DNA of 64,000 bases from Magnetococcales bacterium (GCA_015231175.1 JADGBZ010000012.1:11509-75508); one strand, 5' to 3'. Counted from the first letter of the stretch, positions 8,077 to 64,000 are shown. The notes: generated by a model from the letters alone, not told the origin. A program made the numbers and translations.

Positions 8077-8257
8077 GTAACTATTCAGCACCCTTGCAAG
8101 AAAAGCCTGGATATGAAAGCCTTTGTCAGGTGCAAGAAAAGCATGGATATGAAAGCCTTTGTCAGGGCTTCGCCCCGAACCCCACCAGGACACTGTCCTG
8201 GACCTGCCAGGGAGCCAGCCCCCTGGATCCCGATTCGTGTCCGGGTGGCATAGTTAC
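8077..8257 (+). mobile_element. MITE-like element copy A (type 1, full length, with internal 36-bp tandem duplication)
   Basis: Ends GTAACTATTCAGCACC ... GGTGGCATAGTTAC. Core GAAAGCCTTTGTCAGGGCTTCGCCCCGAACCCCACCAGG. 8096-8131 is duplicated at 8132-8167. The element ends 2 nt before the lipoprotein ATG. Confidence 0.8.
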
Positions 8258-8259
8258 AG

Positions 8260-10020
8260 ATGAAGAAAGGTCACTCAGCCGGGATTTTTCTTGCGGGCGT
8301 TCTTCTGTTCACCGTGGTGGGCTGTGGCGGAGAGAAGGCGCCACCCACAGCTTCACTCCCCGACAAGGCAACAGCCACCTCGAAGCCTACCCAGGACGCA
8401 TCCCGAGGTGACAGGGAGCGGCAGCAAACTCCTGCCGCCGTCACACCTCCCAATCAGACCCATCCGGCGAAGGATGGGGAGAGATCAGATCTGCCCCGCA
8501 AGGTCGCTGTTCTTCCCTTTCGCAACCTCACCCTGGATCCAGACGCTGGTGAGACGGTGCGGAGGTTGTTTTTCAACTTTTTCAGATCCCTGAACTACGA
8601 CGCCGAACCCATGCCAACCGTGGATCGTCGCCTGCGGGAGCACCATCTGTTCGGCCCTCTGTTACAGGGCGGGAACGCTCCCCTGGAACGGGTCTGCCAG
8701 GCCCTGGGCGTCGATGCTGTCATTCGGGCCGTGTTGTCGGATTATGGCCGCCGGGAGGCCCTTGTCCAAGCCCAGCGTCAGGTCACGTTGCAAGCGGAGT
8801 TGGTGCGTTGCCAGGGAAACCAGCTCATCTGGAGTCGGAAGATGTCGCTGCCCATCCTGGAGAGTGACACCTCGCTGCATACCACTGGCCAAGCCCTCTC
8901 CGCCATCAGGGCGTTCATTGGCCATCGCCGTGCCACCTTGCTACAGACGGCAACCCGGCTTTGCCTGTTGATGACCCAGGAACTGCCCAACCCCAAAAGG
9001 GCCTCCGACCCACCCCCACGAATCACTTTCATGGCGCACAGCGGGGCTGGACGATTTCTTCTGCCTGGCCAGATTTTGCGGATTGTCGTCATCGGGGAAG
9101 CCGGGTTGACTGGTTCCTGGGATGTCGGACCGGGAATCGTCAACCAACCGTTGCAGGAGAAATCCCCCGGAATGTATGTGGGCGCCTTCTCCATTCGGGA
9201 AAAGGATCGCGTCATCGACACCTTGCCGGTGGCGCGCCTGACCACCCGTTCCGGGGTTGTCAACCTCTGGGAGGATATTCTTGGCGGTGTGAATATAGGG
9301 CGTCTGTCCCCCCTGCCCGGCATGGTGGTCAAGGACACGACCCTGACCGCAGCCCAGGGCCCTTACATGATTCACCCGGCTCTCATGGTCCAATCCGGTG
9401 CAACCCTGACCATCGAAGCCGGCGCCGTGATTTGGGTGCGTGGCAGGGGGATCGTGGTCAAAGGGGCCCTTGTCGTGTTGGGGAGTCCAGATCGCCCTGT
9501 TCGTCTGCAAAGCGCCACCTCGGAGATCTCCTGGGAAGGTATTTTTCTGGATCACACTCAACGACCCAACACCTTTGCCAACATTTTTATCAGTGGCGCC
9601 CGATATGGCATCAACGCCCAACACGCCAAGGTCGCCCTCCAGGCAGGCGAACTGCACAACAACACCTGGGGCGTGGTTGTGAATGATGGTGAACTGGATT
9701 TGCAAAACAGCCACATCCTCAACTCGGAGAAGAGCGGCCTGACCATCAGCGAAAGCCGTGGCTTTGTTGGCATGAACAGGATCATCGACAACCGTGGCGG
9801 CGGCATTCAACTTCGTCATGCACAGGTCCGGATCGAAAATAACGACATTTACGGAAACACACCCTGGGAAATCCGTAATCTGGATCCCGGAGATCCCTTT
9901 ACTGCGCCGCAAAACTGGTGGGGTCGGTCCCAAATCAGCGAGGTTCCCCTGCAAGGGGCCGTCAGTCTGGATCCCCCTTTGCGACAACCCGCAACCTCCC
10001 AGGCCGGAACGGCCCCTTGA
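8260..10020 (+). CDS. Lipoprotein with LpoB/DUF799-like N-domain and right-handed beta-helix (PbH1/NosD-like) C-domain
   Basis: Lipobox signal MKKGHSAGIFLAGVLLFTVVGCGG; VAVLPFRNLT motif; C-terminal repeats of the beta-helix type (NNTWGVVVNDG, NSEKSGLTISES, NRGGGIQLRHA). Confidence 0.75.
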   Translation: MKKGHSAGIFLAGVLLFTVVGCGGEKAPPTASLPDKATATSKPTQDASRGDRERQQTPAAVTPPNQTHPAKDGERSDLPRKVAVLPFRNLTLDPDAGETVRRLFFNFFRSLNYDAEPMPTVDRRLREHHLFGPLLQGGNAPLERVCQALGVDAVIRAVLSDYGRREALVQAQRQVTLQAELVRCQGNQLIWSRKMSLPILESDTSLHTTGQALSAIRAFIGHRRATLLQTATRLCLLMTQELPNPKRASDPPPRITFMAHSGAGRFLLPGQILRIVVIGEAGLTGSWDVGPGIVNQPLQEKSPGMYVGAFSIREKDRVIDTLPVARLTTRSGVVNLWEDILGGVNIGRLSPLPGMVVKDTTLTAAQGPYMIHPALMVQSGATLTIEAGAVIWVRGRGIVVKGALVVLGSPDRPVRLQSATSEISWEGIFLDHTQRPNTFANIFISGARYGINAQHAKVALQAGELHNNTWGVVVNDGELDLQNSHILNSEKSGLTISESRGFVGMNRIIDNRGGGIQLRHAQVRIENNDIYGNTPWEIRNLDPGDPFTAPQNWWGRSQISEVPLQGAVSLDPPLRQPATSQAGTAP

Positions 10021-10030
10021 AACGGATCGC

Positions 10031-10070
10031 AACCATTCACCACCCGGCAACGAATCGGGGTCCAGGGGGC
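10031..10070 (-). repeat. MITE-like half element B (right module only, inverted)
   Basis: AACCATTCACCACCCGGCAACGAATCGGGGTCCAGGGGGC is the reverse complement of the type-1 right module. It starts 11 nt after the lipoprotein stop. Confidence 0.75.
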
Positions 10071-10183
10071 CAGACGTACCGTTTGGGATCATCATGGTCG
10101 AAGGTGGATCAAGACCCAAAACATCGTGCGCGTTCATGCGCGTCAAGGCAGGTCAGCACATATGGGTCAGCTCCCTGGGCAGT

Positions 10184-10600
10184 TCATAACTCCTCCTCGG
10201 AGGATTCGCTGATACCATTTTCCACGACGATGGCAGCTTTCTCCTCGCTCCTGTCATCGGGCTCGTCAAAGTGCAGACCCACACCCTGGGGTGTCACGCG
10301 GGCCACAACGCAAGGGAAAGCCATGTTGTATTGGTGTTCACCTTCTTGGACGGTGATGGCCGCCACACCGCTCTCCCCTTGGGTAATGCCTGTCAAAGGG
10401 GCATCTGTGAAGAGGAACGCACCACTGAGACTGACATCCCGAGTATAACCGATGATCGTGACTCCCCCGTCCGTGTGCAAGGTCAGGTCAGTGACGAAAC
10501 GAAACCGTTCATTCAAGCGGGACGGCTCGCTTTCCGTGGGAGGATGGTCTGAGTGAGATGGAAGTGGTGTGGTCATATGGATCCAGATTTCCTGTTGCAC
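10184..10600 (-). CDS. PilZ domain protein
   Basis: RFRFV ... DVSLSGAFL pattern typical of PilZ (RxxxR ... D/NxSxxG). The start is GTG at 10600 or ATG at 10576. Confidence 0.65.
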   Translation of the reverse strand: MQQEIWIHMTTPLPSHSDHPPTESEPSRLNERFRFVTDLTLHTDGGVTIIGYTRDVSLSGAFLFTDAPLTGITQGESGVAAITVQEGEHQYNMAFPCVVARVTPQGVGLHFDEPDDRSEEKAAIVVENGISESSEEEL

Positions 10601-10615
10601 ATGTCAAGATGCGTG

Positions 10616-10653
10616 GTAACCATCCAGCACCCGGCAACGAACCGGGGTTCCGG
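10616..10653 (-). repeat. MITE-like half element C (diverged right module, inverted)
   Basis: GTAACCATCCAGCACCCGGCAACGAACCGGGGTTCCGG, between the pepN stop and the PilZ gene start. Confidence 0.65.
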
Positions 10654-10696
10654 ATTCTCCCACGATGGCGAGGATTTCCGCAATAAGAATGCCAAA

Positions 10697-13503: not shown

Positions 13504-16500
13504 ATGGGCGAAAGATGGGCATGGTGGTTTGGGTGCTGGAGAGGTTCTGTTGAAAGTTTGGCCATGAATATTCGTGAAATACCCTATAATTACACCTCAT
13601 TTTCTGATCGGGAGGTGGTGATTCGGCTCCTTGGCGCGGAGATGTGGGAGCATCTGAATCAACTCCGGTCCAAGAGGAATACCGGTCGTTCGGCGCGCAT
13701 GCTGTTTGAAATTTTGGGAGACCTCTGGGTGGTCTCCCGCAATCCGTTTTTGCAGGATGATTTGGGAGCGAACCCCAAACGTCTCGAAAATTTGCTGGCT
13801 ACGTTGCACGCCCGTTTACAGCATATCGAGGCCCGCGCCGACGGCAACGCCCTGGTTGAACAGCTGGTGTCGAAAAGCCGGGCAGCCATCGAGACTTTTG
13901 CCGATCATTTTCAGCAACAAAAGCGTCTGCGTCAGGATATTCTGCAACGTTTGGGGCCGCCCGTTACCCGGCGTGACAACATTGATTTCAGCGCCCTGGG
14001 ACGGGTTGCCCAGGTCACGGATGCCACGGACTGGCGGGTGGAATATCCAGTCGTGGTTCTCATGCCGGACCGGGAAGAGGAGGTTCTCCCCCTGGTGCGC
14101 GAGTGTATGGCCCTGGATCTCACCATCATTCCCCGGGGCGGTGGCACCGGGTACACCGGTTCCGGCATCCCGCTTTTTCCCCATACAGCGGTGATCAATA
14201 CGGAAAAACTGGATCGCATCGGGCCGGTGGCTTTGCTCCACCTGGATGGTCAGAGGGAAAAAATCGCAACCATTTCGGTTGGGGCCGGGGCGGTGACACA
14301 ACATGTGGCCATGGCGGCGGAGGCGGCTGGCTATGTGTTTGCCGTGGATCCGACCTCGCAACAAGCCTCGACGATCGGCGGCAACATCGCCATGAACGCA
14401 GGGGGCAAAAAGGCGGTCCTGTGGGGCACCACCCTGGACAACCTGCTCTCCTGGCGCATGGTGATGCCGGATGGCAACTGGCTTCAGGTCACCAGGCTTC
14501 ACCACAATCTGCGTCGAATCCATGACCAACCGGAGGCGCATTTTCGCGTCGTGCGTTTGGCGGACGATGGCCTGACAGAGATTGATCAGTCCGAAATATT
14601 GACCCTTCAGGCGGCTGAGATTCGCAAACCCGGCTTGGGCAAGGATGTCACCAACAAGTTTTTGGGCGGAGTGCCCGGCGTGCAGAAAGAGGGGTGTGAT
14701 GGCATCATCACCAGCGCCACCTTTGTGCTTCACCGCATGCCGGCCCAAAAAAGGACAGTTTGTCTGGAATTTTACGGCGCCGACCTTGGAACCGCCGTCG
14801 CGGCCATCGTTGAGATTAAGAATTACCTCGACAAACATGCGGATGTGGTGTGCGCAGGCCTGGAACACCTGGATGAGCGGTATGTGCGGGCCGTCGGCTA
14901 TACCCCCAAAGCCCCACGCGGTGTTCGCCCTAAAATGTTGCTTTTGGCCGATCTGGCCGGCGATGAAGCCGGATTGGTCGACGCAGCGGCGGCCCATGTC
15001 GTGCATCTGGCCGCAGCGCGTGAGGGGGTTGGATTTATTGCCAGCACCCCTGAAGCCCGGGCTGAGTTCTGGGCCGACCGGTCCCGGGTGGCTGCGATCG
15101 CAGCTCACACCAACGCCTTTAAAATCAATGAAGACGTTGTCATTCCGCTGGAGCGCCTGACGGAATACAGTCAGGGCATCGAACGGATCAATATCGAACA
15201 ATCCATACAGAACAAGCTGCGCATTCTCTCCGAGGTCAGCGCCTTCCTGGAAGGGGATCGTCTGGCGCGAACTCTGCCGACTCGCCTGGACAACAGCACC
15301 GAAGGTGGGGTCATTCTGGCGGGCCAGATCGAGGCAGCCTTGCATCTGCTCGCCGAAATCCGACAGCGTTGGCAATGCTGCCTGGATAACCTGGATCGTG
15401 CCACCGATGATCCAACCTTGCCGGCCCGACTCCTGGCGCCAGATCTGGTACGCCCCGGGGCCACGCTCATACAACTGTTGCTGCGGCGGGAACTCCTGAT
15501 TTCCTATCGTCGGGAGGTGGAACGACCCCTCAAACATCTCCTCGGCGGTGAATTCTGGTTTGCCACGCGGCAGGAGTTGGATGCCATCCACGCACGTGTC
15601 CGTTCAAGCCGGCTCTTTGTTGCGCTGCACATGCATGCCGGTGACGGCAATGTCCACACCAACATTCCCGTCAACTCCAACGATTATGCCATGCTGGGCG
15701 AGGCGGACCGCATTGTGGACCGGATCATGGCCCTCGCCCGTCATCTGGGCGGTGACATTTCCGGAGAACATGGCATCGGGTTGACCAAATTCAAGTACAT
15801 GGATCCTGTCAAAAAGGCCGCCTTCGCCCGCTACAAAACGAGAGTGGACCCCCTGGGATATTTCAACCGTGGTAAACTTCTCGCGGGGGGTGGGTTGGAA
15901 CTGGCCTATACCCCATCGCTTCGCCTCGTCCAGCAGGAAGCCCTCATTTTGCGCGAAAGCGAGCTGGGAGCCCTGAACGATGATGTCCGTAACTGCCTAC
16001 GTTGCGGCAAATGCAAATCCGTATGTACCACCCATGTTCCACGCGCCTCCCTGCTCTTTTCTCCCCGCAACAAGATTTTGGCCACCGGTTTGATTATTGA
16101 GGCATTCCTCTATGAGGAGCAAACAAAAAGGGGCATCTCACTCCACCACTTCGACGCCCTGAACGAATTGGCGGATCATTGCACCATCTGTCACCGTTGT
16201 CGCCAACCCTGTCCTGTCCATATCGACTTTGGCCAGGTCACCATCCGCATGCGGGAGACACTGCAACATCAAAACAAGAAAAGAAACTCCCTGGCCGGCA
16301 ACCTGGCCTTGGGGTTTTTAACGCTCACCGATCCACAGAGCATCGACTGGTCCCGACGCCTGCTCCTGAATGGGGGTTATGCCGGTCAACGCCTGGCACA
16401 TCACATATGGCGGCGTTTGCATCCGGTTTCCGCTGAAAATCTGCCACCCGCTTCCAACGAGCCTCCGCACTGGAGTGCGCGGGTAGCACACATCCTGGAC

Positions 16501-22432: not shown

Positions 22433-22485
22433 GCTTCGCCCCAAACCCCACCAGGACACTGTCCTGGTGGGTGGGGTGCAACTAC
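22433..22485 (+). repeat. MITE-like short element D (core + hairpin + terminal repeat; middle deleted)
   Basis: GCTTCGCCCCAAACCCCACCAGGACACTGTCCTGGTGGGTGGGGTGCAACTAC, 8 nt after the carboxypeptidase stop. Confidence 0.7.
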
Positions 22486-51194: not shown

Positions 51195-51260
51195 ACTCAC
51201 CACCCGGCAACGCATCGGGATAATGTGGTGAATAGTTGCCACCCTTTCAAGAAAAACCTG
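51195..51260. repeat. MITE-like mosaic H (inverted right-module fragment plus left end of another copy)
   Basis: GACTCACCACCCGGCAACGCATCGGGA followed by GGTGAATAGTTGCCACCCTTTCAAGAAAAACCTGA. The second part contains the last codons and stop of the ybbA-like gene. Confidence 0.65.
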
Positions 51261-51918
51261 ACGAGGTGATGACACCATTTTCCAGACGCAAACAGCGCTG
51301 CGTCCGTCGTGCCAACTCCTGGTCATGTGTGACCAGCAGCATGGTCGTCCCCCACTGCGCCACCAGACCGAACAGCAGCTCCACCACCCGCACGCTGGTC
51401 TGGCGATCCAGGTTTCCGGTGAGTTCGTCGGCCAGAATCAGGACAGGCCTGGTGACGAACGCCCGGGCGATGGCGACACGTTGTTGTTCTCCACCGGAAA
51501 GGTGTACCGGTCGGTGCCGCAACCGATGGGCCAAACCCACTTGCTCCAACATCTCTCTGGCCCGATCTCTGGCATCAGGGATGGCGGACAATTCGAGCGG
51601 CAACGCCACATTTTCCAGGGCCGTCAGGAATGGCAGCAAATGGAAAGCCTGAAAAACCATTCCCAGGCGTTCGCGGCGAAACCTGGCCAGTCGATCCGGA
51701 TCCTGGGCCCCCAGATCAAGACCGTCAACTTCGACGCGACCCGAAACAGGTCGCTCCACACCGGCAAGCAGGGAGAGAAGCGACGACTTGCCACTGCCGG
51801 AAGGCCCCATCAGGCCAACCACCTCTCCGGGGTTGACGTGCAGATCGACCCCGCGCAAGATCACAATCGTGTCGGAGCCATGGGAGACTGAATAGGTGAC
51901 GGAGTCCAATCGGATCAT
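51247..51918 (-). CDS. ABC transporter ATP-binding protein (YbbA-like)
   Basis: Internal ATG at 51918 gives MIRLDSVTYS...; Walker A GPSGSGKSS, LSGGEQQRVAIARA, Walker B ILADELTGNLD. Confidence 0.9.
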   Translation of the reverse strand: MIRLDSVTYSVSHGSDTIVILRGVDLHVNPGEVVGLMGPSGSGKSSLLSLLAGVERPVSGRVEVDGLDLGAQDPDRLARFRRERLGMVFQAFHLLPFLTALENVALPLELSAIPDARDRAREMLEQVGLAHRLRHRPVHLSGGEQQRVAIARAFVTRPVLILADELTGNLDRQTSVRVVELLFGLVAQWGTTMLLVTHDQELARRTQRCLRLENGVITSSGFS

Positions 51919-54218: not shown

Positions 54219-54240
54219 TGCCCCACACCCAAAAAACGAT

Positions 54241-54650
54241 TGAAAAACTGGAATGGAGGTCCAGGAGGAAGGGCTGCGCCCTTCCTCCTGGTGGGGTTCG
54301 GGGCGAAGCCCTGACAAAGGCTTTCATTCCAAGACTTTATCTTGAAACGACTGAAAAACTGGGATGGAGGTCCAGGAGGAAGGGCTGCGCCCTTCCTCCT
54401 GGTGGGGTTCGGGGCGAAGCCCTGACAAAGGCTTTCATTCCCAGACTTTATCTTGAAACGATTGAAAAACTGGGATGGAGGTCCAGGAGGAAGGGCTGCG
54501 CCCTTCCTCCTGCTGGGGTTCGGGGCAAAGCCCTGACAAAGGCTTTCATTCCCAGACTTTATCTTGAAACGACTGAAAAACTGGGATGGAGGTCCAGGAG
54601 GAAGGGCTGCGCCCTTCCTCCTGGTGGGGTTCGGGGCGAAGCCCTGACAA
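54241..54650 (-). repeat. Tandem array of type-2 MITE-like units (3 full units of 111 bp and 1 truncated unit)
   Basis: Units start at 54241, 54352, 54463 and 54574 and differ by a few substitutions. Each carries the core and the 14-bp-stem hairpin CCAGGAGGAAGGGC-TGC-GCCCTTCCTCCTGG. Confidence 0.9.
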
Positions 54651-54654
54651 ATAT

Positions 54655-56652
54655 TCAGGAAACGACGCGCAATTCACGACGCAGGTGCATCATGCCGCCC
54701 ATTTCAAGAAACCGGCTGAAATTTCTGACGGAGAGATCTTTTTTGCCCCCCACCAGGAGGTGATGTCGGCAAAACTCTACGGCCTGGGGGTTGCGTTGGA
54801 TGACCACATCCAACAAGCCCGCCCCTTCAGGGCAAAGGTTGGGGTACAGGTAACGAAGCGTGTCGGCTGGCGCCTTTTCCTGCCATTCAATCGGACTCTC
54901 CAGGGGATCTTTGCACAAAAGCAGGGTCGACAAGCGGCAGATACCTTGCAAGTGCGCCTGAACCTCCGGGGCTGTATCAGACAAGGCAATCCGGAGGCGT
55001 TCGTTGATGACCCTCTCCAAGGCCATAAAGGTGGCCTCTTTTTGATACACCTGGGCACAAAAGGCAAAGTTGAGTTTCAGGAATTCATCGACCATTTTGC
55101 CATAATGTTCGGGCTGCTCATAATGCTGCAACATCTCCTTTTCCGTTGCAAACCACTCGGCCTGGGAGAGTGCGCGCATCTCTGCAAAAAGAGGTTGCAA
55201 TACAGGGTCGTCCGTCTGAGCAACCTGTTGCAGGACGGACCCAGGATTGCAGCCGTGTTCGAGGCCAAACCGCAACTGGGGACGAAAAAATCCGGCGTTC
55301 CAACAAAAATAGATCAGCCAATGCAGCACTTTAAAGCTGTTGAGTTCGGTTTCCGTCATATCCTGCGTTGCCCGGACCGACTCTTCCACCTCAAAGACAC
55401 GTTGGCCATGATAAACCCCATAGGCCCCGAAAATGGGACGGAACCGGGTCTCAATCCGATACTCCCGACGAAAAGAGTCCGACTCGTAATCGGTGCCGGG
55501 AAGAAGGCGGATATTGATCGGATCGATTCTGGCAAAGCCAAGGGCGAAAGCCTCTTGCAAGGTCTTCAAATGGCTGGCTGCACTCTCCCCGGGAAGTCCG
55601 ATCAAAATATCGGTGCTGAGTTCCAACCCCCGTTCCCGATAAGCAAGGATTTGTTCATGGAGGCGCTGAAATTTAATCTGCCCCCGTCCTGTTTTCTCCA
55701 GGACTTCCGGATCTGTCGACTGCAAGGCAATCGTGGACTGAATGGCGAAAGTTCCCTGGGAGGCATCCCCCCGAAATGTATCCGATATCTCAAGATTTCT
55801 CTGGGTGGTGTTTTTGGCGGACCACACCGTCACGTAGTGAGGCGAGCCATTTTTGATGCGCAAGGATTGAATCTTGCGCGCAATGTCCAGATCCCGCTTC
55901 AGCAGGCCAAAATTGGCATCGGCAAAGATCCAGTTGGAGCGGACGGCGGCATGTTCGGCAACGTAATCAAGCTCCGCCTCGACCACGGCGAGGGGGCGTT
56001 GGCGCAATTTGGAGAGATTCCCGGCGCCCCATTCGCAATAGATGCAACCATAGGGACAGCCCCGGGTGGTCTCCAGCAGGGGGATCATCTCCCCGTTGGC
56101 AAGGAATGGATCCAACCAACCGGTCAGGTAAGGGCTGGGGCCCCGGATTTCCCGGGGCTGGGAGCTGTACTCCACGGGCCGATACAGAAGTCCGTCTTTC
56201 CAGCGTCCCGCCACACCCGATGGCAGATCCTCCGGCGAGGCCTGTTGCAAAATATGATGGACCAGATGGGTCAGAGGCTCTTCCCCTTCGTGCAGAATGT
56301 AGTAATCCAGAGAGGGTCTTGCCTGTAAAAATGTCAAGATATCCGCCGGATCATGACGGATCTGCGGCCCCCCCATGACAGTCACCATGGCGGGGTTCAA
56401 CTCCTTGCCGAGCGTCAAAAACAAATTTCCCAACCGTGTATTCCAACTGTAGTTGCTGACGCCGAGGATATCTGGCGCCTGCTGACGCATGGCCCTTTCA
56501 AGATCCGTGGGATATTTGAACAATTGGATCGTGACAGAAGATTCGAAGCGTTCTGCAAGGCTGGCAGCGAGGTAGGCAATATTCAGAGGGACAACGTAAT
56601 TTGTCTTGATGGTATCGTAAACCAGATCGGCCAGATAGATTTTCACGCGCAA
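54655..56652 (-). CDS. B12-binding-domain radical SAM protein (class B-like)
   Basis: N-terminal Rossmann-like B12-binding region (DILGVSNYSW), radical SAM cluster TTRGCPYGCIYCEWG, and a long C-terminal domain. Confidence 0.85.
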   Translation of the reverse strand: MRVKIYLADLVYDTIKTNYVVPLNIAYLAASLAERFESSVTIQLFKYPTDLERAMRQQAPDILGVSNYSWNTRLGNLFLTLGKELNPAMVTVMGGPQIRHDPADILTFLQARPSLDYYILHEGEEPLTHLVHHILQQASPEDLPSGVAGRWKDGLLYRPVEYSSQPREIRGPSPYLTGWLDPFLANGEMIPLLETTRGCPYGCIYCEWGAGNLSKLRQRPLAVVEAELDYVAEHAAVRSNWIFADANFGLLKRDLDIARKIQSLRIKNGSPHYVTVWSAKNTTQRNLEISDTFRGDASQGTFAIQSTIALQSTDPEVLEKTGRGQIKFQRLHEQILAYRERGLELSTDILIGLPGESAASHLKTLQEAFALGFARIDPINIRLLPGTDYESDSFRREYRIETRFRPIFGAYGVYHGQRVFEVEESVRATQDMTETELNSFKVLHWLIYFCWNAGFFRPQLRFGLEHGCNPGSVLQQVAQTDDPVLQPLFAEMRALSQAEWFATEKEMLQHYEQPEHYGKMVDEFLKLNFAFCAQVYQKEATFMALERVINERLRIALSDTAPEVQAHLQGICRLSTLLLCKDPLESPIEWQEKAPADTLRYLYPNLCPEGAGLLDVVIQRNPQAVEFCRHHLLVGGKKDLSVRNFSRFLEMGGMMHLRRELRVVS

Positions 56653-56679
56653 AATTTCCCGTTTTTACGTGGTCCTTTT

Positions 56680-56826
56680 GTAACTATTCACCACCTTTTC
56701 AAAAAAAGCCTGGACAGGAAAGCCTTTGTCAGGGCTTCGCCCCGAACCCCACCAAGACGCTGTCCTGGACCTGCCAGGGAGCCAGCCCCCTGGACCCCGA
56801 TTCGTTGCCGGATGGTGAATAGTTAC
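56680..56826 (+). mobile_element. MITE-like element copy J (type 1, 147 bp, reference copy)
   Basis: Terminal inverted repeats GTAACTATTCACCACC / GGATGGTGAATAGTTAC, with all internal modules. Its last bases provide the stop codon of the methyltransferase gene. Confidence 0.85.
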
Positions 56827-57464
56827 ATCCTTTTTTCAAAAACCCACCAGGTTGGATTATCAAGACCTGTCAACCGTTTCCAGAAAAATCCATAATCCAC
56901 GACCTGGAGATCAGAAAAGTTATCCATCCAGAAGCCGCCAAAATCGCGCTTGAAAAGAAGGTCGTCGTGTCCACGATAGTGAATGGTTTCCGGCTTGTCG
57001 GAAAAATACTCGATGCAGGCGATATAACGGCGGGAGACCCGATGGATCTCCTTGCAGGAGGCCAGCAAATGATCCGGATGGATATGGATCATGACACCAC
57101 TGGTGAAGGCCAGATCGACAGCCTTGTCGGGAAGGGGAATATGGGCAGCAAATCCATCCAGGGCGTGGGTGGCAGGAAGGACGCCATCCGTTACCAGCCG
57201 CTGGCGGCTCTCTGCGTTGGGTTCGACGGCGAAAAGCTCCGCATCGGTCAAACGGCGCAACGCCCGCATGACCAGCCCGACATTGGCACCCACTTCAAGG
57301 ATGGATTGCGGTGGAGCGCCGTCCATGCAACCAAGTACCCTTGCCCAAACCTTGACCCGTTCGTGAAGCCGCTTTTCCGTGACCTGATTGCGCTCCCGGT
57401 AGTCATGGCCAAACGCGCCGCGCCACTGTTCAAGCTGTCTGCTCTGCTCCGGGGGGGTTGTCAT
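56823..57464 (-). CDS. Class I SAM-dependent methyltransferase (resembles pseudaminic-acid-biosynthesis-associated methylases)
   Basis: WRGAFGHDYRERN N-terminus, SAM motif ILEVGANVG, LFKRDF near the C-terminus. The family assignment is from memory of TIGR03587-type proteins. Confidence 0.75.
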   Translation of the reverse strand: MTTPPEQSRQLEQWRGAFGHDYRERNQVTEKRLHERVKVWARVLGCMDGAPPQSILEVGANVGLVMRALRRLTDAELFAVEPNAESRQRLVTDGVLPATHALDGFAAHIPLPDKAVDLAFTSGVMIHIHPDHLLASCKEIHRVSRRYIACIEYFSDKPETIHYRGHDDLLFKRDFGGFWMDNFSDLQVVDYGFFWKRLTGLDNPTWWVFEKRM

Positions 57465-57597
57465 GAGCTTTCATCCTTTCTGAAGGCAAATTTTAATAAC
57501 CAGGGGAGCCGGATTGTAACGCCAAATTTTCCGCAGGAACACCCGCCATGCATCCGCCCTCCTGCAAGGTCGCGACATGCCAACAATGACAAATGAT

Positions 57598-57904
57598 TCA
57601 TCCACAGGCAAAATCAGGGCCAGAAAAAGAGGATCAGAAATTTACATAGACCCATTCACGCATTTCACTTACGTATCCTATTAAAAATATTAACAATATA
57701 TTGTCGGAGCGGGGATTATTCCCATGCATAAGCCTCTGGCAAGAGGAATCCTCCCCAAGCCATCAACATGATATCCACAGTGTTATCCACAGGTCAAAAG
57801 GAGATCGCCAAAATTTGCTTAAATTTTAATCATTTTATTAAATCCAACTTGAATAACAACTTGTTACATAAACTCTTCATCGGTTATCCACAACCTGTTC
57901 CACA
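57598..57904 (+). promoter_or_regulatory. Cluster of five co-oriented DnaA-box-like 9-mers flanking an AT-rich tract (oriC-like or DnaA-regulated region)
   Basis: TCATCCACA 57598-606, ATATCCACA 57771-779, TTATCCACA 57783-791, TTATCCACA 57884-892, TGTTCCACA 57896-904. The tract 57811-57880 has 14 G+C out of 70 by my count. Confidence 0.5.
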
Positions 57905-57957
57905 GAAGCTGGGGAAAAGGCATGCGGAGTGGATGGGGCGTCCGGCAAGGCGGCATT

Positions 57958-58839
57958 TCAGAGGTAGGTGCGGATTTCTTCACGAAAGTTGCGCGGCTCG
58001 ATTTTGAATGTCTTGATCATCAGGTTGATATCACAAATATTTTCCTCCCGCAGCATGATCAGTTGGTCCGAGGTGAGGGGTGGGCGGGGCAGCAGTCGTT
58101 CAAGGATGGCGGCCTCCAGGCGGAGCAATGGCATGGGGAGAAAAAATTTGACGCGGCTTTTGCCCATGGCCGAGGCGATGGTCTCCATGATCTCGGCGAA
58201 GGAGAGGCGTTCCGGCCCCCCCAACTCGAATGTCTGGTCGATCGTGGTGACATCGGCCAGAGCAGTGACCACACAATGGACGACATCCTCGACCCAAACG
58301 GGCTGCATGCGGCTCTGACCGTCACCCAGAATGGGCATGAATGGCAGGTAACGGATGATGCGGGCAAATTGGTTGACGAAATGATCGCGAGGCCCAAAGA
58401 TGACGGAGGGTCGGAAGATGGTGTACGGAACCCCGCCATGGCGGAGACACTCCTCCGCTTCCCACTTGGTGCGATGGTAGAGGCTGGAGGCGTTGGGACG
58501 GGTACCCAGGGAGCTCATGTAGATCAATCGCCTCACCCCATGGCGTTTGGCGACATCCACCACGTTCTGTGTCCCCTGGCGGTGAACATTGGCAAAGGTA
58601 TTGCGGCCCGTCTCCACCAGAATGCCAACCAGGTGGATCACTTGTTCCACCCCTTCCATGGCGGCGTCCAGGGCGCCAAGGTCAAGAATGGACCCCTGGT
58701 AGAACTGCATGGGAGACACAGCGGGATCGAGCCAGTTGGGACGGTTCCGGGCAAACCCACGCACCAACCGTCCCTCATCAATCAGGCGACGCACCAGGGA
58801 ATACCCGACCAGACCCGTACAACCAGTGACCAGTATCAT
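57958..58839 (-). CDS. NAD(P)-dependent epimerase/dehydratase-family SDR (NDUFA9/NmrA-like)
   Basis: MILVTGCTGLVG Rossmann motif and YxxxK (YHRTKWEAE). ATG 58839 has GGAGG 6 nt upstream. Confidence 0.8.
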   Translation of the reverse strand: MILVTGCTGLVGYSLVRRLIDEGRLVRGFARNRPNWLDPAVSPMQFYQGSILDLGALDAAMEGVEQVIHLVGILVETGRNTFANVHRQGTQNVVDVAKRHGVRRLIYMSSLGTRPNASSLYHRTKWEAEECLRHGGVPYTIFRPSVIFGPRDHFVNQFARIIRYLPFMPILGDGQSRMQPVWVEDVVHCVVTALADVTTIDQTFELGGPERLSFAEIMETIASAMGKSRVKFFLPMPLLRLEAAILERLLPRPPLTSDQLIMLREENICDINLMIKTFKIEPRNFREEIRTYL

Positions 58840-58957
58840 GACCATCCTCCACCCCGCACGTGGACGCAGCCTCCTGGTCATACTAATTCATTTTTTCGCT
58901 TTTGTGTACGTTATTTGCAGCGATCCATTCCCCTTTCTGGCAAAGCCTGGAGATAAA

Positions 58958-59105
58958 GCAACCATTCACCACCCTTGCAAGAAAAGCCTGGACAGGAAAG
59001 CCTTTGTCAGGGCTTCGCCCCGAACCCCACCAGGGCGCTGCCCTGGACTAAGCCAGGAAGCCAGCCCCCTGGATCCCGATTCGTTGGCGGGAGGTGAACA
59101 GTTAC
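58958..59105 (+). mobile_element. MITE-like element copy K (type 1, full length)
   Basis: GCAACCATTCACCACCC ... GGGAGGTGAACAGTTAC. Nearly collinear with copy J. The central hairpin carries a G:C pair where copies A, D and J have A:T. Confidence 0.85.
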
Positions 59106-59143
59106 GAGATAAAGGCGTTTGTCAGGGCTCTGTCCAGCGCCAA

Positions 59144-59677
59144 TCAGGGAGGATCGTGTGGTTCGGTGTGGAACATTCTGAAAAAATTCTCCAGATACCA
59201 ATCAACCACCCTATCCAAACCTTGGGCATAGGCGAGCCGGATCTCTGACATGGCCTGGTTGAATCGTTCAACCTCAACCACGGATAAAACACCCTCCTGA
59301 TGTCTTTGTCGCGCCACAGCAAGCAACCGGTCCAACTCCTGGTACACATGACCATGCGGATCCAGGACCGAGTAAAGCTCCTCGACAGCTTGAAAAACGG
59401 TCAGGTAGTGCTCGGGCGGGGGAGGTTCCCGAACGGGAGCCGGTGTGGGTGGCGGCATCGGCGGTGGCGGGGGGAGCGCAACGATCTTTTTTTTCTTGAT
59501 CGAACGCACGCCGCCCACCGTGAAGGCGCGCAGATCGACCCAGGTATCCGGGGGAGGTGGCAGACCAAAATCCGTCGGTCTTTCACGGACCTTCTCCTTG
59601 CGAACGCCGCGAAGGGCATAGTCCCGAAGATCGATCCACACCCCTTCCGCAGTGACTCCGTCCATCATCCACCTCAT
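59144..59677 (-). CDS. Hypothetical protein with duplicated N-terminal motif and proline-rich linker
   Basis: W(I/V)DLR..(A/T)..GVR motif occurs twice, then PPPPPMPPPTPAPVREPPPP, then a helical C-domain. No family recognised. Confidence 0.5.
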   Translation of the reverse strand: MRWMMDGVTAEGVWIDLRDYALRGVRKEKVRERPTDFGLPPPPDTWVDLRAFTVGGVRSIKKKKIVALPPPPPMPPPTPAPVREPPPPEHYLTVFQAVEELYSVLDPHGHVYQELDRLLAVARQRHQEGVLSVVEVERFNQAMSEIRLAYAQGLDRVVDWYLENFFRMFHTEPHDPP

Positions 59678-59784
59678 GACGCACTTTGTAAAAGCGACCT
59701 CTGAAGCCTATCGGCGGGAAGAGAGTCGCCCTTGAGCAAAATTTGCGTCAGTCCGAAGTTTGTTCCGGATCGGGCGCTGAACGA

Positions 59785-60786
59785 TTACCCCATTTTTATT
59801 TTGACAGTGACGATGTGCTGCCTATCGTCGGGGTGGTGCAAGGTCAAAATCATCTCTTTTCGTGGATCGTGGTGGTTGACCCAATGAGGCAGGGTTTGCG
59901 GTGTTACGGGTTGCTCATCCAGGGTCAGCAGGATATCACCCGCCCGGATGCCAGCCGCATAAGCCGGGCTATCAGGTTCAACACCCACGATCAAAACCCC
60001 TTTATCCATCGGCGCGGGACTGGCCACCAGCCCCAACCGGGGGCGGTGTCGGGAATCTTTCCGGGTTGCAGACGATTTGACCACGTTCAACGCTTCGGAG
60101 AGAATGGCCGCCACCACATAGACATGGTTGCCGCCGCCGATTTCGACATGCACATTTTTCACCTGGCCGTAACCGGCGATGGTCACATTGTTTCGACCCA
60201 ATGGCAGGTTGACGGCCTCCCCTGGGGTGACTCCCATGTCTGTTCCGTTCAGTTGCCAGCGCATGCCAGGAGGTTGCGTCGCGACGACGAGGCCACCTTT
60301 TGCGGAGCTTTTTTCGACAGGAAGGAGAAAAACGGATCCTTCCCGCGACTGGATCCGGATCGCTTTTTGACCTTCCAGGTTGCGCAGGGGAATGCGCAAT
60401 CTGCCGGACTCCAGCTCCTCCTGGGTTGGCCAGGCGGTGGCAGGGTACAAGGAATGATTCTGGAGAATTGGCGTAGAGGTATTTTCTTTGATGTAACCGT
60501 TCTCTTTCAAAGCCCCCTGCTGCACCACAACAGTGTCCACAGGGGAAGATCCATCGCCCTTTGAGTTAGAGCTAACTCTATCGGCGCCACGCCGGAGCGA
60601 ATCCTCCGCCAAGGATGCCAAAGATGCGCGTTTCCCAAAAATTTCGTTCATCTCCCGCTTGCGTCGGGCCTCCCCGGCTTGCTTCGTATCCATGGATCGT
60701 TCTTGTACAATGCCCTTGTCCATATCCTGAATGGTTTTGCGTGATGCTAGCCAATCCGGGTCAAAAAGGGTGATACCCAAGTCCAT
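59785..60786 (-). CDS. PEGA-like + PDZ domain protein
   Basis: PDZ (KGVLIVGVEPDSPAYAAGIRAGDILLTLDEQPV) and a PEGA-like beta segment (WQLNGTDMGVTPGEAVNLPLGRNNVTIAGYG). ATG 60786 has GGAGG 8 nt upstream. ORF sequence upstream of it runs into a repeat element. Confidence 0.65.
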   Translation of the reverse strand: MDLGITLFDPDWLASRKTIQDMDKGIVQERSMDTKQAGEARRKREMNEIFGKRASLASLAEDSLRRGADRVSSNSKGDGSSPVDTVVVQQGALKENGYIKENTSTPILQNHSLYPATAWPTQEELESGRLRIPLRNLEGQKAIRIQSREGSVFLLPVEKSSAKGGLVVATQPPGMRWQLNGTDMGVTPGEAVNLPLGRNNVTIAGYGQVKNVHVEIGGGNHVYVVAAILSEALNVVKSSATRKDSRHRPRLGLVASPAPMDKGVLIVGVEPDSPAYAAGIRAGDILLTLDEQPVTPQTLPHWVNHHDPRKEMILTLHHPDDRQHIVTVKIKMG

Positions 60787-60824
60787 CTTCTTTTCCTCCA
60801 CCCCAGTCTTTTCATGGTCTCTTC

Positions 60825-60896
60825 GGGGCTTCGCCCCGGACCCCACCAGGAGGAAGGGCGCAGCCCTTCCTCCTGGACCTCCATCCCAGTTTTTTA
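60825..60896 (+). repeat. MITE-like element L (type 2 core + long hairpin)
   Basis: GGGGCTTCGCCCCGGACCCCACCAGGAGGAAGGGCGCAGCCCTTCCTCCTGGACCTCCATCCCAGTTTTTTA, in the 127-bp divergent spacer between the PDZ gene and mutM. Confidence 0.8.
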
Positions 60897-60913: not shown

Positions 60914-61753
60914 ATGCCTGAACTTCCCGAAGTCGAAACCATTCGCCGGGGCGTGGCCGAGCGGATCGTGGGCAGAACAATCCAGGCCCTGGCCGTGCGA
61001 CGTACCGACCTGCGTTGGCCCGTACCCGAAGTCACCCTGCGTCAGAAGGTCATCGGCAAGACCATCCTGAAGGTGGAACGACGCGGCAAATATGTATTGC
61101 TGGCCTGTCCCAACGGATTTATTTTACTCCACTTTGGCATGACCGGTGGCGTGCGGTGGGTCAGGCCGGACGCCCCCTGGGAAAAACATGATCACGTCGC
61201 CCTGGAGTTGGACAACAACCTGACGCTCCGTTTTTACGATCCGCGTCGATTCGGGGCTCTCCTCTGGGTCGATCCACCCTGGGAGAGTCATCCTTTGTTG
61301 GCCAACCTGGGTGTGGAGCCTCTTGGAGAGGCATTCCATGGCGATCATCTGTTTGCAGCATCCCGCAACCGCCGCGTCAGCGTCAAGGGCTTCCTCATGG
61401 ACGCCAAAATGGTCGTGGGGGTGGGGAACATCTATGCCAACGAGGCGCTGTTTCTGGCCGGCCTGCATCCGGAGAGGCCTGTCGATCAATTGACCCTTGA
61501 TGATTGTCAACGTTTGGCCCAAACGGTCCGGGAGCTTCTCTCCGCCGCCATTGCCAAGGGGGGGACCACTTTCAGGGATTACAGGGACAGCGATGGCAAT
61601 ATGGGTTACTTTAAAATGGATCTGCACGTCTACCAGAGGCAGGGGGAACCTTGTTTCACGTGCAACTCACCCATCCAAATGACGCGCAGCCACGGACGCT
61701 CGACATTCCACTGCCCTGCTTGTCAAAAGCCGGTACGCAGCCCTTGGCCATGA
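60914..61753 (+). CDS. mutM: Formamidopyrimidine-DNA glycosylase
   Basis: MPELPEVETIRRG N-terminus, H2TH region, and C-terminal zinc finger CFTCNSPI...FHCPACQ. Confidence 0.92.
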   Translation: MPELPEVETIRRGVAERIVGRTIQALAVRRTDLRWPVPEVTLRQKVIGKTILKVERRGKYVLLACPNGFILLHFGMTGGVRWVRPDAPWEKHDHVALELDNNLTLRFYDPRRFGALLWVDPPWESHPLLANLGVEPLGEAFHGDHLFAASRNRRVSVKGFLMDAKMVVGVGNIYANEALFLAGLHPERPVDQLTLDDCQRLAQTVRELLSAAIAKGGTTFRDYRDSDGNMGYFKMDLHVYQRQGEPCFTCNSPIQMTRSHGRSTFHCPACQKPVRSPWP

Positions 61754-61754
61754 C

Positions 61755-61824
61755 AGCGTTTGTCAAAGCGCCGCCCCGAACCCCACCATGGCGCTGCCCT
61801 TGACCCACCGGGGAGCCAGCCACC
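61755..61824 (+). repeat. MITE-like element M1, left part (interrupted copy)
   Basis: AGCGTTTGTCAAAGCGCCGCCCCGAACCCCACCATGGCGCTGCCCTTGACCCACCGGGGAGCCAGCCACC. The remainder resumes at 62029-62061 (CCCCGATGCGTGACCGTGTGCTGAAGTCAC). Confidence 0.65.
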
Positions 61825-61825
61825 T

Positions 61826-62028
61826 AGTGGCTCAACCGACATGATTTGAAGTGTTCACTTTTCGTGATTATTCCGCACTCTTTCAAGAAAAGCTTGGAAA
61901 TGAAAACCTTTGTCAGGGCTTCGCCCCGAACCCCACCAGGGCGCTGCCCTGGACTAAGCCAGGGAGCCAGCCCCCTGGACCCCGATTCATGGCTTGCCTG
62001 CACATCAAATCAACACGGTTGAGCCACT
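61826..62028 (+). mobile_element. Inverted-repeat-bounded insert carrying MITE copy M2, nested inside copy M1
   Basis: 28-nt ends AGTGGCTCAACCGACATGATTTGAAGTG / CACATCAAATCAACACGGTTGAGCCACT match at 24 of 28 positions as inverted repeats. Internal bases 61864-61989 form a type-1 copy. Confidence 0.65.
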
Positions 62029-62102
62029 AACCCCCGATGCGTGACCGTGTGCTGAAGTCACCACGGTTGAATCTTTTCATGAACGTTACTACACTGAAGG
62101 AC

Positions 62103-62381
62103 ATGAAGATCACCTACGACCCTGCCAAGAATTTTTGGAATACGACAACACGCCAGCTTTCTTTTGATCGCGCCGCTGACTTTCAATGGCAGGATGCACA
62201 CATCGTCGAGGATATCCGACACATCTACCCGGAACGGCGATTTGTTGCAGTAGGCTATCTCGATAGACGTTTACATGTCCTTTGCTTTACACCCGTTGCG
62301 GGTGGCATACGGGTAATCAGTTTTCGCAAGGCCAATCGTCAAGAGGCACGTAATCATGGAAAATCCATTACCATTGACTGA
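62103..62381 (+). CDS. brnT: BrnT-family (DUF497) toxin
   Basis: ITYDPAKN...RFVAVGYLDRRLHVLCFT...IRVISFRKANRQE, typical of BrnT. ATG 62103 is preferred; the ORF opens at 62037 inside repeat-derived sequence. Confidence 0.8.
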   Translation: MKITYDPAKNFWNTTTRQLSFDRAADFQWQDAHIVEDIRHIYPERRFVAVGYLDRRLHVLCFTPVAGGIRVISFRKANRQEARNHGKSITID

Positions 62382-62649
62382 CGACGACGGAGAAGTCAGA
62401 GATCTGACCCGGGAAGACTTTGCGCGGATGAAACCATCCCATGATGTTTTGCCTGTCATCCTGGGAACAGATGTAGCTGCCGCATTATTGGCAAGGCGTG
62501 GACACCCCCCTGGCAGCGGCGGAAAAGTCTCCACCACGGTGCGTTTCGATGCAGAGGTGATCTCGGCCTTCCGTGCCACCGGAAGAGGGTGGCAGACCCG
62601 CATGAACGATGCCCTGAAGGACTGGTTGAAAACCCACCCTCCTGCATGA
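62356..62649 (+). CDS. brnA: BrnA-family antitoxin
   Basis: 97 aa; overlaps brnT by 26 nt. C-terminal RHH-like segment (VSTTVRFDAEVISAFRATGRGWQTRMNDALKDWL). Confidence 0.75.
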   Translation: MENPLPLTDDDGEVRDLTREDFARMKPSHDVLPVILGTDVAAALLARRGHPPGSGGKVSTTVRFDAEVISAFRATGRGWQTRMNDALKDWLKTHPPA

Positions 62650-62699
62650 GGGCTTTTACAGCACCTCCCGTTGCCGGCCCATACGATGATCGCTGGTTG

Positions 62700-63122
62700 T
62701 CACCGTGCTGGGGGTCTCTCCACAACCTGGGGTGGCAACGCCGGCAGGCGCATTTCCTGGGATACATGCGGGGATACGTAAGAGACCGGAGCCGGAGGAA
62801 CAAGCCGGATGATGGCTGCAACACCCCCGAGAATGATGATACCGGTGGCAATGACCCATTTGATGGTTTCCACCTTGGCGGCTTCGATCTCCTTGCGCAA
62901 CTCAGCCTTGGCGAGTTCAATATCCGCCTTGACAAGCTCAATGTCCCTCTTGACAAGTTGAATGTCCCCCTTGGTGGCCAGATCCTTAAGCCGGGACTCC
63001 TCCACCTGTTGGAGGATGCTTGAAATGGCCTCGGCCTGGGCTTCCGCCTGGACGGATGGGACGCCAGCGGTTTCCAGTTTCCTCACAAAGGCCAGGGTGT
63101 CGAACGACAGGGCATGGCTCAT
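62700..63122 (-). CDS. DUF1640-like coiled-coil protein with C-terminal TM anchor
   Basis: MSHALSFDTLAFVRKLETAGVP..., repeated coiled coil (DIQLVKRDIELVKADIELAKAEL), TM segment WVIATGIIILGGVAAII. Confidence 0.7.
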   Translation of the reverse strand: MSHALSFDTLAFVRKLETAGVPSVQAEAQAEAISSILQQVEESRLKDLATKGDIQLVKRDIELVKADIELAKAELRKEIEAAKVETIKWVIATGIIILGGVAAIIRLVPPAPVSYVSPHVSQEMRLPALPPQVVERPPAR

Positions 63123-63213
63123 GGCGCTCCTCCTCAATATTCCTCTACAGCCCAATCACCGGCCCCATCTCAACACACTCCCGGGCCAACATCAACCGCC
63201 CTTTGGGCTAAAG

Positions 63214-63249
63214 CAAAGGCCAGGGTGTCGAACGACAGGGCATGGCTCA
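63214..63249 (-). repeat. Exact 36-bp duplicate of the 5-prime end of the DUF1640 gene (gene-start fragment)
   Basis: CAAAGGCCAGGGTGTCGAACGACAGGGCATGGCTCA is identical to 63086-63121. It covers codons 2-13 of the DUF1640 gene. In this copy the ATG is replaced by TTG, and the frame closes after about 24 codons. Confidence 0.8.
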
Positions 63250-63273
63250 ATCCGGTATGTCACGTGGCCTGCT

Positions 63274-63630
63274 TTACAAGCCTGCCTCGGAGTTCATGGC
63301 ATCCAATACCCGTTGCAACACCAAGCGAAGGGCTGATAACTGGTTATCCTCCAGTGCTTTCCAAACTTCCTCAGGATCGACACCATCGTACTGGTGAATC
63401 AAAACATCCCGGAAACCAGCCATACGCCTCCAAGGAATTTCCGGATATTGCTTACGGACAGATTCAGGAATATTTTTCGCTGCTTCGCCAATAACTTCAA
63501 AATTTCGGTAAACCGCATCCTGGACCATCAGGTTACTCAAAAAATGCCCCTGCCCATCCTTGGTGAATTTTTCAATACGTTCCAGACGCTCGATCATGTG
63601 AACCACAAAGAGTCGGGAGTCTTTGCTCAC
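63274..63630 (-). CDS. hepT: HepT-like (DUF86) ribonuclease toxin
   Basis: Rx4HxY-type motif (FRDVLIHQYDGVD). Overlaps the upstream mntA-like gene by 4 nt. Confidence 0.8.
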   Translation of the reverse strand: MSKDSRLFVVHMIERLERIEKFTKDGQGHFLSNLMVQDAVYRNFEVIGEAAKNIPESVRKQYPEIPWRRMAGFRDVLIHQYDGVDPEEVWKALEDNQLSALRLVLQRVLDAMNSEAGL

Positions 63631-63917
63631 AAGGGAATTGCTTCCCTCAGAACGCGATCCCTGATGAACCAGTGGATCGCCGGTTCAGAAACCACATCAA
63701 CAGCCCGCCCCAATAATTCCTCGATGTCCTGCTTCAGTGCAACGTGATCCCACAAAGAGCGGGTTTCCTCGAAATTCACCAACAGATCCACGTCACTGCC
63801 CAGATTGTCATCACCACGAGCCATGGATCCAAACACCCGAATGTCCCGTGCTCCATGACGTTCAGCCAAAGCCAAGATTTCCGCTCGGTGGTTCTGAATC
63901 AATTTTGAATACGCCAT
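63627..63917 (-). CDS. mntA: MntA-like nucleotidyltransferase antitoxin
   Basis: Minimal nucleotidyltransferase motif FGSMARGD...SDVDLLV. Confidence 0.8.
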   Translation of the reverse strand: MAYSKLIQNHRAEILALAERHGARDIRVFGSMARGDDNLGSDVDLLVNFEETRSLWDHVALKQDIEELLGRAVDVVSEPAIHWFIRDRVLREAIPL

Positions 63918-63980
63918 GTAGCCATGTCCCTGTTTGAATCAAATTTCGACCATGATCACCGTTTCGGCCACATCATGAAA

Positions 63981-64000
63981 GCCCAACGAATCGGGATCCA
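63981..64000 (-). repeat. MITE-like right-module fragment N (cut by the window end)
   Basis: GCCCAACGAATCGGGATCCA matches the inverted right module CAACGAATCGGGGTCCAGGG. Confidence 0.5.

Follow-up and report, generated by a model that had tools for sequence, protein, structure and literature searches.

Introduction

Classical MITEs (transposable elements of miniature size with inverted repeats), among them the Correia/NEMIS elements of Neisseria, MITEAba12, Nezha and RUP, are small, bear terminal inverted repeats (TIRs), are flanked by target-site duplications (TSDs) of fixed length and reach high copy number. They lie between genes and near them, have the potential to alter gene ends, and depend on a transposase acting in trans. 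A repeat family that resembles them in these respects is described here from 64,000 nt of DNA of an uncultured freshwater magnetotactic coccus, deposited as Magnetococcales bacterium (GCA_015231175.1, JADGBZ010000012.1:11509-75508). This whole stretch is referred to as the window, and positions are counted from its first letter. The parents of the classical MITEs are IS5, IS630 or other insertion sequences (ISs), with a TSD of TA or 9 bp, whereas the window family is allied to IS66/ISBst12 and has a TSD of 8 bp. It differs further in its modular interior, its exchangeable right modules and a hairpin module that is met with across phyla.

BOX elements of Streptococcus pneumoniae (boxA-boxB-boxC) are also modular and intergenic, with conserved ends and a middle that is variable and sometimes repeated. 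To our knowledge they have neither a TSD nor a known transposase, and their sequences are unrelated to those of the window family.

The inverted repeats of IS66 elements begin with GTAA, and insertion is accompanied by 8-bp direct repeats (PMC11946415). ISDge4 of Deinococcus geothermalis, a member of the ISBst12 group, encodes a single transposase of 449 aa between the TIRs GTGACTACTCAGCA and GTAACTGCTCAGCA; it was found with the 8-bp direct repeat CCTCGATG, and its transposition has been shown experimentally in vivo (PMC12898284). The window repeats are a dense, previously undescribed MITE family whose mechanism is of a known kind. They are very probably derived from, and mobilised in trans by, a member of the IS66 family with a single open reading frame (ORF), an IS of the ISBst12 group. 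A MITE family is thereby added to a little-studied branch of IS66, for which transposition was demonstrated experimentally only recently.

A dense family of modular repeats

An earlier note on this DNA had claimed at least 15 loci built from common blocks. An nhmmer profile made from two full copies, J (56680-56826) and K (58958-59105), and one copy from another genome matched about 22 segments of the window, grouped in 17 loci with a combined length of 1,919 bp (3% of the window); the same families were recovered by a repeat finder and by Tandem Repeats Finder. The 16-nt TIR GTAACTATTCACCACC has 8 matches in the window with at most two mismatches, against 0.01 expected from shuffled sequences; the 39-nt core has 9 matches with at most three mismatches, and none are expected. 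Alignment displays the modules: a left TIR with its subterminal part is followed by the core, then by a perfect hairpin whose length varies, and last by a right module of either type 1 or type 2. On these blocks the earlier note proved correct, as it did on the half elements, the mosaics and a tandem array (here measured as 111 bp x 3.8), all of which contain the same modules. Its limits require two amendments. The two full copies were both given as 147 bp; J has this length, but K measures 148 bp. The family was placed at 8077-64000, where 16 of the loci do lie, but a further copy is found outside this range, at 979-1031.

Full copies are 69-93% identical in pairwise comparison. K is 93% identical to a copy from WMHbin3 (L064), a different Magnetococcales metagenome-assembled genome (MAG), and only 88.5% identical to J. 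The window elements measure 51-181 bp, those of other Magnetococcales up to 450 bp, and they have no ORF of their own. On a gene map drawn from Pfam annotation of 50 window ORFs, all 17 loci are intergenic and devoid of coding capacity, and for 10 of them the nearest start or stop codon is no more than 10 nt away; the note had placed almost all of them between genes and often near start or stop codons. It had also stated that the fab-to-uvrC core is free of repeats, and there is indeed no locus between 28460 and 41144, the fabD-fabG-acpP-fabF ... uvrC block.

Ends, target-site duplications and probable parent element

Intact copies have 16-nt TIRs with the tip GTAACTATTCA, and GTAAC is present at 25-28 of the 30 ends in our end table. 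A blind search for inverted GTAACTATTCA-like tips with at least 6/8 identity of the flanks added four elements, from four other Magnetococcales genomes, to those of the window. An 8-bp TSD with at least 7/8 identity was present at all seven well-preserved elements, which are 147-450 bp long and come from five Magnetococcales genomes (A, J, K, L064, L077, L081 and L026); the probability of such a match by chance is about 4e-4 per element. Three of the seven are in the window. Copy A (8077-8257) has the perfect TSD AGATGAAG at 8069-8076 and 8258-8265, K has the perfect 8-bp TSD GAGATAAA, and J has GTCCTTTT/ATCCTTTT (7/8). Those from the four other genomes measure 148 bp (WMHbin3), 239 bp (Ca. 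Magnetaquiglobus FCR-1), 308 bp (MYC-9) and 450 bp (nHA4bin8), the last with the perfect duplication CGCACTTT. Among the elements with TIRs and 8-bp TSDs in the five genomes the tip is common and the interiors are different; the Magnetococcales elements form a superfamily of MITEs whose common mark is their ends.

When metagenomes were scanned with GTAACTATTCASSACC, many pairs at MITE distance with perfect 8-bp duplications were recovered and, with the same tip, elements of 1.5-2.2 kb. Two of the large elements have a perfect 8-bp duplication on both sides, GACTGTAC (L208:876-2381) and TACCGAAC (L148:4710-6508), and a frameshifted ORF; in three others the ORF is intact and encodes 474-509 aa (L191:723-2226, L154:206-2361 and L192:431-2060). 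The single ORF of these elements encodes a DDE_Tnp_IS66 domain (Pfam E=2.8e-28) preceded by an N-terminal DUF6444, and its homologues are annotated 'IS66 family transposase' in the source records. The transposase gene was present in 16 of the 120 metagenome loci that had been selected by TIR alone.

The window TIRs GTAACTATTCAGCACC and GTAACTGTTCACCTCC match those of ISDge4 position by position, the tip common to the ISBst12 group (ISDge4; ISBst12 of Geobacillus) reading GTAACT(A/G)TTCA(C/G)CA in the window and GTAACTGCTCAGCA/GTGACTACTCAGCA in ISDge4, and the 8-bp target duplication is likewise shared. The metagenomic elements with the exact tip have a DDE_Tnp_IS66 ORF of 450-510 aa, in contrast to the non-coding window elements, which share only about 16 terminal nucleotides with the ISs and are filled with unrelated hairpin cargo. 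Because ends, duplication length and linked transposase genes agree, the elements are filed as ISBst12-group/IS66-derived MITEs.

A DDE transposase of about 450-510 aa would recognise the TIRs of about 16 nt (consensus GTAACTATTCA[G/C][G/C]ACC) and would insert the element by staggered cuts 8 bp apart, from which an 8-bp TSD would result. The interior would be carried as non-coding cargo of GC-rich hairpin modules. Recombination between modules, deletion and loss of ends would then give rise to the type-1/type-2 mosaics, the 51-bp minis, the solo ends, the copies without TIRs and the 111-bp array, all of which are most likely immobile relics. We infer that a transposase of this kind exists in the host genome and that copies A, J and K can still be mobilised.

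On metagenome contig L241 (1391-3094), two MITEs of 80 and 127 bp, with TIRs identical to the window 16-mer, bracket a 1.5-kb segment holding two unrelated small genes. The outer ends are identical at 20/20 positions, and the arrangement looks like a composite transposon.

Occupied and empty sites in related species

Syntenic regions of two related species, about 103 kb in all, were located by means of orthologues. Protein identity with these relatives is 76-80% for the NDUFA9-like protein and about 60% for HolB. They contain 1 copy in about 103 kb; the window has 17 loci in 64 kb. At 76-80% protein identity this contrast in density points to a recent lineage-specific burst, and a difference so sharp between species should be useful as a strain marker.

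The spacer between the DUF4340 and ABC-aux genes is 183 nt in the window, where it contains the element at 42628-42781, and about 40 nt and empty in Magnetococcus sp. DMHC-1. The HolB-PSP1 spacer is 175 nt with the copy at 28313-28460, compared with 48 nt in JADGCO01, and the spacer occupied by the 51-bp mini-element at 25088-25138 is about 55 nt shorter in two related species. At a fourth site, downstream of the TatD/radical-SAM gene, both the window and JADGCO01 are empty, and JADGCJ01 has a copy (L248:13911-14017). The four sites show gain or loss, not an exact pre-insertion target. The site of K was also considered as a clean empty site in DMHC-1 and was found unusable, as an extra gene is present there.

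The JADGCJ01 copy (13909-14030) has no GTAAC TIRs. It is bracketed by a 9-nt inverted repeat, GCCCGTCCCA...TGGGACGGC, which hints that interiors without TIRs may also move or get copied.

Conserved termini, 8-bp TSDs and insertion polymorphism have now all been demonstrated. The earlier view of a non-autonomous, MITE-like and unrecognised family is supported, and it is sharpened by the TSDs, the empty sites and the ends of the parent group. The ISBst12-group ends, the separate and wider occurrence of the core, and the status of many loci as immobile remnants go beyond that view.

The core hairpin module beyond the MITE

Relatives of the core were sought by exact match to the 21-mer GGCTTCGCCCCGAACCCCACC, so that the constancy of these 21 positions is by construction; variants of the 21-mer also exist. 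In the window the cores include 8151-8189, 56718-56756 and 58996-59034. Half of the 120 loci among the matches listed are from Magnetococcales. The other listed matches are from Acetobacteraceae and other Alphaproteobacteria, Clostridia (rumen, gut and termite MAGs), Phytomonospora (Actinomycetota), Desulfovibrionales, Acidobacteriota, Wallbacteria and one member of the Chlamydiales, at least five other phylum-level groups. Copy K and a rumen Clostridia MAG have 46 identical nucleotides.

The module has a grammar: the 21-mer, a perfect hairpin of variable sequence in fixed register, and then ACCCC. In 93 of 128 of the matches listed, a perfect hairpin of at least 6 bp begins at the last CC of the 21-mer, compared with 2% of random positions; 28 distinct hairpin arms occur, and the hairpin is followed by AC(C/A)CC. 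The grammar is kept, again among the matches listed, in 35 of 39 from non-Magnetococcales Proteobacteria, 5 of 9 from Clostridia, the 3 from Phytomonospora and 2 of 3 from Desulfovibrionales. In the low-GC Clostridia the second hairpin is A/T-rich.

An ISBst12-type end was found within 250 nt of none of the 62 non-Magnetococcales occurrences among the matches listed, on which ground the cross-phylum matches were rejected as copies of the same MITE; within Magnetococcales only about 10% of the core loci among those matches are near such an end. In the five Magnetococcales MITE subfamilies the core always occupies the inner edge of a series of hairpins that runs, with the same orientation, to the same TIR. 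In some lineages it makes up the ends of other palindromic repeats (L112 and the CAWKAN01 loci L014-L106). In an alphaproteobacterial MAG it is near both ends of a giant palindrome of about 330 bp, and in a Defluviitaleaceae MAG two inverted cores stand about 165 bp apart. The core is thus not confined to the MITE. It is a module of its own, distributed far more widely and across phyla, and its identity between phyla was unexpected.

It is possible, but on balance we think it somewhat doubtful, that the core represents an undescribed cross-phylum class of hairpin units, consisting of the constant hairpin GGGGCTTCGCCCC, then GAACCCCA, a register-fixed perfect hairpin of free sequence and ACCCC, and carried as cargo or as ends by unrelated repeat families. 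The carriers would be the ISBst12-type MITEs, the 330-bp alphaproteobacterial palindromes, the 165-bp Defluviitaleaceae inverted pairs and hairpin arrays of Phytomonospora. If this were true, recognition by a widely conserved host or mobile-element protein would be implied, for example an HUH-type single-strand DNA enzyme, and the units would amount to a system like that of the repetitive extragenic palindromes (REPs) without the known GTAG/CGTC tags. This module is the only part of the present findings that might lead somewhere new. A literature string search with the core, its reverse complement and the hairpin strings turned up no paper.

When copy K was compared by BLAST with plasmids and phages, only a core-like stretch of 37-39 nt was matched. 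The core had 1 match in 2.9 million IMG/VR contigs, and carriage by phages was rejected on this count. The sequence GTCAGGGCTTCGCCCCGACACCCCAAAAGGGCGTTGC, 89% identical to the core, is contained in 65 small (about 1.5 kb) mobilizable Col(MG828) plasmids of E. coli, Klebsiella and Shigella, an example being E. coli plasmid p4-H9 (L245, NZ_CP029183.1, 1299-1335). The match may be due to chance, since its E-value is only 0.009, and the region is presumably homologous to the bom (oriT) segment of pBR322/ColE1. An unverified 4-kb virome contig from human faeces (L246, MT839740.1, 'Bacteriophage sp.') has at 620-830 an array of hairpins followed by A(C/T)CCC, with units GGGGCTTTGCCCC-TAACCCC-AGCAGGGCGCTGCCCTGC... 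that are repeated twice about 130 nt apart.

Alternative explanations

In general appearance the repeats are close to REPs, bacterial interspersed mosaic elements (BIMEs) and REP doublets forming hairpins (REPINs), which are also extragenic GC-rich palindromic units combined into mosaics and sometimes arrays, with stems that vary while pairing is kept. The window palindromes might likewise have spread as single-stranded hairpins by means of a REP-associated tyrosine transposase (RAYT, of the HUH type), the GTAAC ends being incidental. The units are GC-rich perfect hairpins, strictly extragenic and in mosaic combinations, and the core and hairpin occur without a TIR at 22433 and 60823, at about 90% of the Magnetococcales loci among the matches listed, and in other phyla. 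The core also stands at the ends of inverted pairs in the two lineages just described. The loops of the hairpins are purine-rich triloops on one strand and include GCGAAGC, an unusually stable DNA mini-hairpin. We nevertheless regard this explanation as improbable. Intact copies have the 16-nt TIRs with the ISBst12 tip and 8-bp TSDs, neither of which is found in REPINs. The described REP superfamilies are defined by a GTAG/CGTC tag and by stems that begin with A/T (PMC3733652). The window family has no unpaired GTAG or CGTC (TGTC/CCTC) tag, the T-C before its core lying within the stem TCGGGGC/GCCCCGA; its stems are G/C-only, and its cores are single, not inverted doublets. No RAYT gene turned up, no systematic search for one having been made.

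That the repeats are structured cis-regulatory RNAs, such as terminators, mRNA stabilisers or attenuators, selected at gene ends and not mobile, is very unlikely in our judgement. Single strands of the elements do fold significantly better than shuffled sequences, and do so on both strands (z = -3.1 to -4.9); the variable hairpin stays perfectly paired across its 28 arms; and many copies either have a stop codon no more than 10 nt away or are flanked by convergent genes. Yet orthologous spacers of the relatives are without elements, the TSDs point to insertion, and the 17 loci have no bias of orientation relative to the flanking genes. A gathering-threshold scan of the window with Rfam gave only tRNAs, with nothing relevant even at E<=5 on 54200-59200, and the consensus matches no Rfam family. 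A scan for the intrinsic-terminator consensus gave no more sites than in shuffles and none at the MITE hairpins but one weak site at the edge of the array. No T-tract follows the MITE hairpins, which are therefore not canonical intrinsic terminators, and the lack of a T-tract, of an Rfam match and of an orientation bias together make a dedicated RNA function unlikely. The elements may still have a secondary effect on transcripts. An artefact of chance or composition in a GC-rich genome, or of assembly, has only the GC-rich, low-complexity look of the modules in its favour and can be given practically no credence. It is already refuted by the shuffle counts of 0-0.01 matches and by an independent MAG of the same organism (GCA_015232135.1, 'Magnetococcales bacterium', JADGAG01), of which a 6.1-kb contig is 99.97% identical to window 54273-60373 and includes J, K and part of the array; related copies are also present in other genomes.

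Derivation from an ISBst12-type IS is thus the reading that we prefer, and several observations weigh against it. Pfam showed no transposase or integrase among the 50 window ORFs, in accordance with the earlier note. With three IS66-type queries, tblastn gave no IS66/ISBst12 transposase either in the window or in roughly 480 kb of other Magnetococcales DNA, made up of 58 loci (about 380 kb) and about 103 kb from the two relatives. A partner within the genome is thus putative. The ISs with this tip come from taxonomically unassigned metagenome contigs, and their MITEs do not have the window interior. Only 3 of the 17 window loci keep both TIRs intact together with a TSD. The polymorphism at the four sites is between species with diverged spacers, and no empty site has an exact single copy of the target. 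Since most copies miss one or both ends, and the window is empty at the site where JADGCJ01 has its copy without TIRs, the interior may in part have spread independently of the TIRs. TIR pairs 1-6 kb apart were absent from the genome-derived loci, and none of the best 120 homologues of the L191 transposase is labelled Magnetococcales. We know of no autonomous ISBst12-type copy from Magnetococcales, and a literature search found no paper on MITEs or on IS66 in this group.

Effects on genes and possible effects on transcripts

As copies land a few nucleotides from start and stop codons, gene ends in this magnetotactic bacterium have been rewritten, with one donated stop and one duplicated start that opens a new upstream ORF. 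Copy A is inserted exactly at the start codon of a downstream beta-helix/NosD-like gene, so that its TSD contains the ATG. In this region (8071-8262) the upstream copy of the ATG opens an ORF of 59 codons that runs through the element. A TAG within the right TIR closes it 6 nt short of the native start, and translational coupling with the native gene is possible. The tip of the right TIR of J supplies the TAA stop of a methyltransferase gene (56823-57464), whose last two codons are derived from the target duplication (56823-56834). The elements would also put strong stem-loops into transcripts and might have a regulatory effect.

Individual loci

The 181-bp type-1 copy A, on the plus strand, contains an internal 36-bp tandem duplication at 8095-8166. 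J and K are also type-1 elements on the plus strand. The diverged full-length type-1 copy at 28313-28460 (plus), detected by the profile, is 72-79% identical to A, J and K, and its TSD is no longer recognisable. The full-length type-2 copy at 42628-42781 (plus) was defined by alignment and consists of degenerate TIRs of the same kind as those of type 1, the core, a hairpin with a 13-bp stem and the type-2 right module; its duplication has been lost. A type-1 copy at 61865-61992 (plus; repeat-finder family D1, profile), 92% identical to K, has a degenerate left TIR and has lost the right one.

Solo right parts are more numerous. At 979-1031 (plus; family D7 of find_repeats, nhmmer E=5.6e-7) there is a right module with a degenerate right TIR, beginning 36 nt past the stop codon of a DJ-1/PfpI gene. 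A solo right end composed of the TIR GCAACCATTCACCACC and CCGGCAACGAATCGGGG lies at 10029-10070 (minus), starting 9 nt after the stop of the gene at 8260-10020; a diverged solo right end follows at 10616-10658 (minus), and a diverged right half is at 47962-48014 (minus), all three belonging to family D9 and matched by the profile. The right half at 41144-41218 (plus; TIR match and profile) has a perfect right TIR (41203-41218) and a right module extended into a long palindrome.

Interiors without TIRs are found at three places, all on the plus strand. That at 22433-22468 (family D5, profile), between convergent genes, is core and hairpin only and is 97% identical to copy A. A type-2 interior at 60823-60894 (family D12, 93%), 19 nt upstream of fpg, comprises the core, a long hairpin and the start of the type-2 module. 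A diverged type-1 interior at 61744-61827 (profile and alignment) overlaps the last codons of fpg. The 51-bp mini-element at 25088-25138 (minus) has a TIR, a short remnant of the right module and a second TIR, with no core. At 51196-51281 (minus; family D8, profile) a similar mini-element, with one TIR degenerate, adjoins an inverted left-subterminal fragment and is a nested or rearranged copy.

The tandem array at 54234-54651 (minus; family D3, Tandem Repeats Finder), also between convergent genes, is 97% identical over its 3.8 units of 111 bp. The unit is a type-2 interior from which both TIRs have been deleted at the junction. The uniformity of the array points to recent amplification, probably by unequal recombination. 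Half elements, interiors without TIRs, minis and the array would all be products of decay or recombination. The Illumina contig of JADGAG01 ends inside this array; with this family, the repeats at which Magnetococcales MAG assemblies are interrupted receive a name and a mechanism.

Other features of the window

A cluster of DnaA-box-like sequences at 57598-57892, with two perfect TTATCCACA together with ATATCCACA and TCATCCACA, occupies part of the 457 bp that separate the methyltransferase gene from the NDUFA9-like one; DMHC-1 has the region in partly conserved form. As there is neither dnaA/dnaN nearby nor a switch in GC skew, the cluster is unlikely to be oriC. At 35548-35876 there is a tRNA-Gly(GCC)/tRNA-Cys(GCA)/tRNA-Gly(GCC) cluster in which 254 nt separate two identical Gly genes; the two related species both have this cluster, with 97-100% conservation. 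At its right end (62037-63917) the window is low in GC and contains toxin-antitoxin-like genes, for BrnT (62037-62381) and for a nucleotidyltransferase (NTP_transf_2, 63627-63917), and a tandem repeat of 21 bp x 3.2 at 62906-62973. In the relatives, BrnT/BrnA and HEPN/MNT pairs are present at other places.

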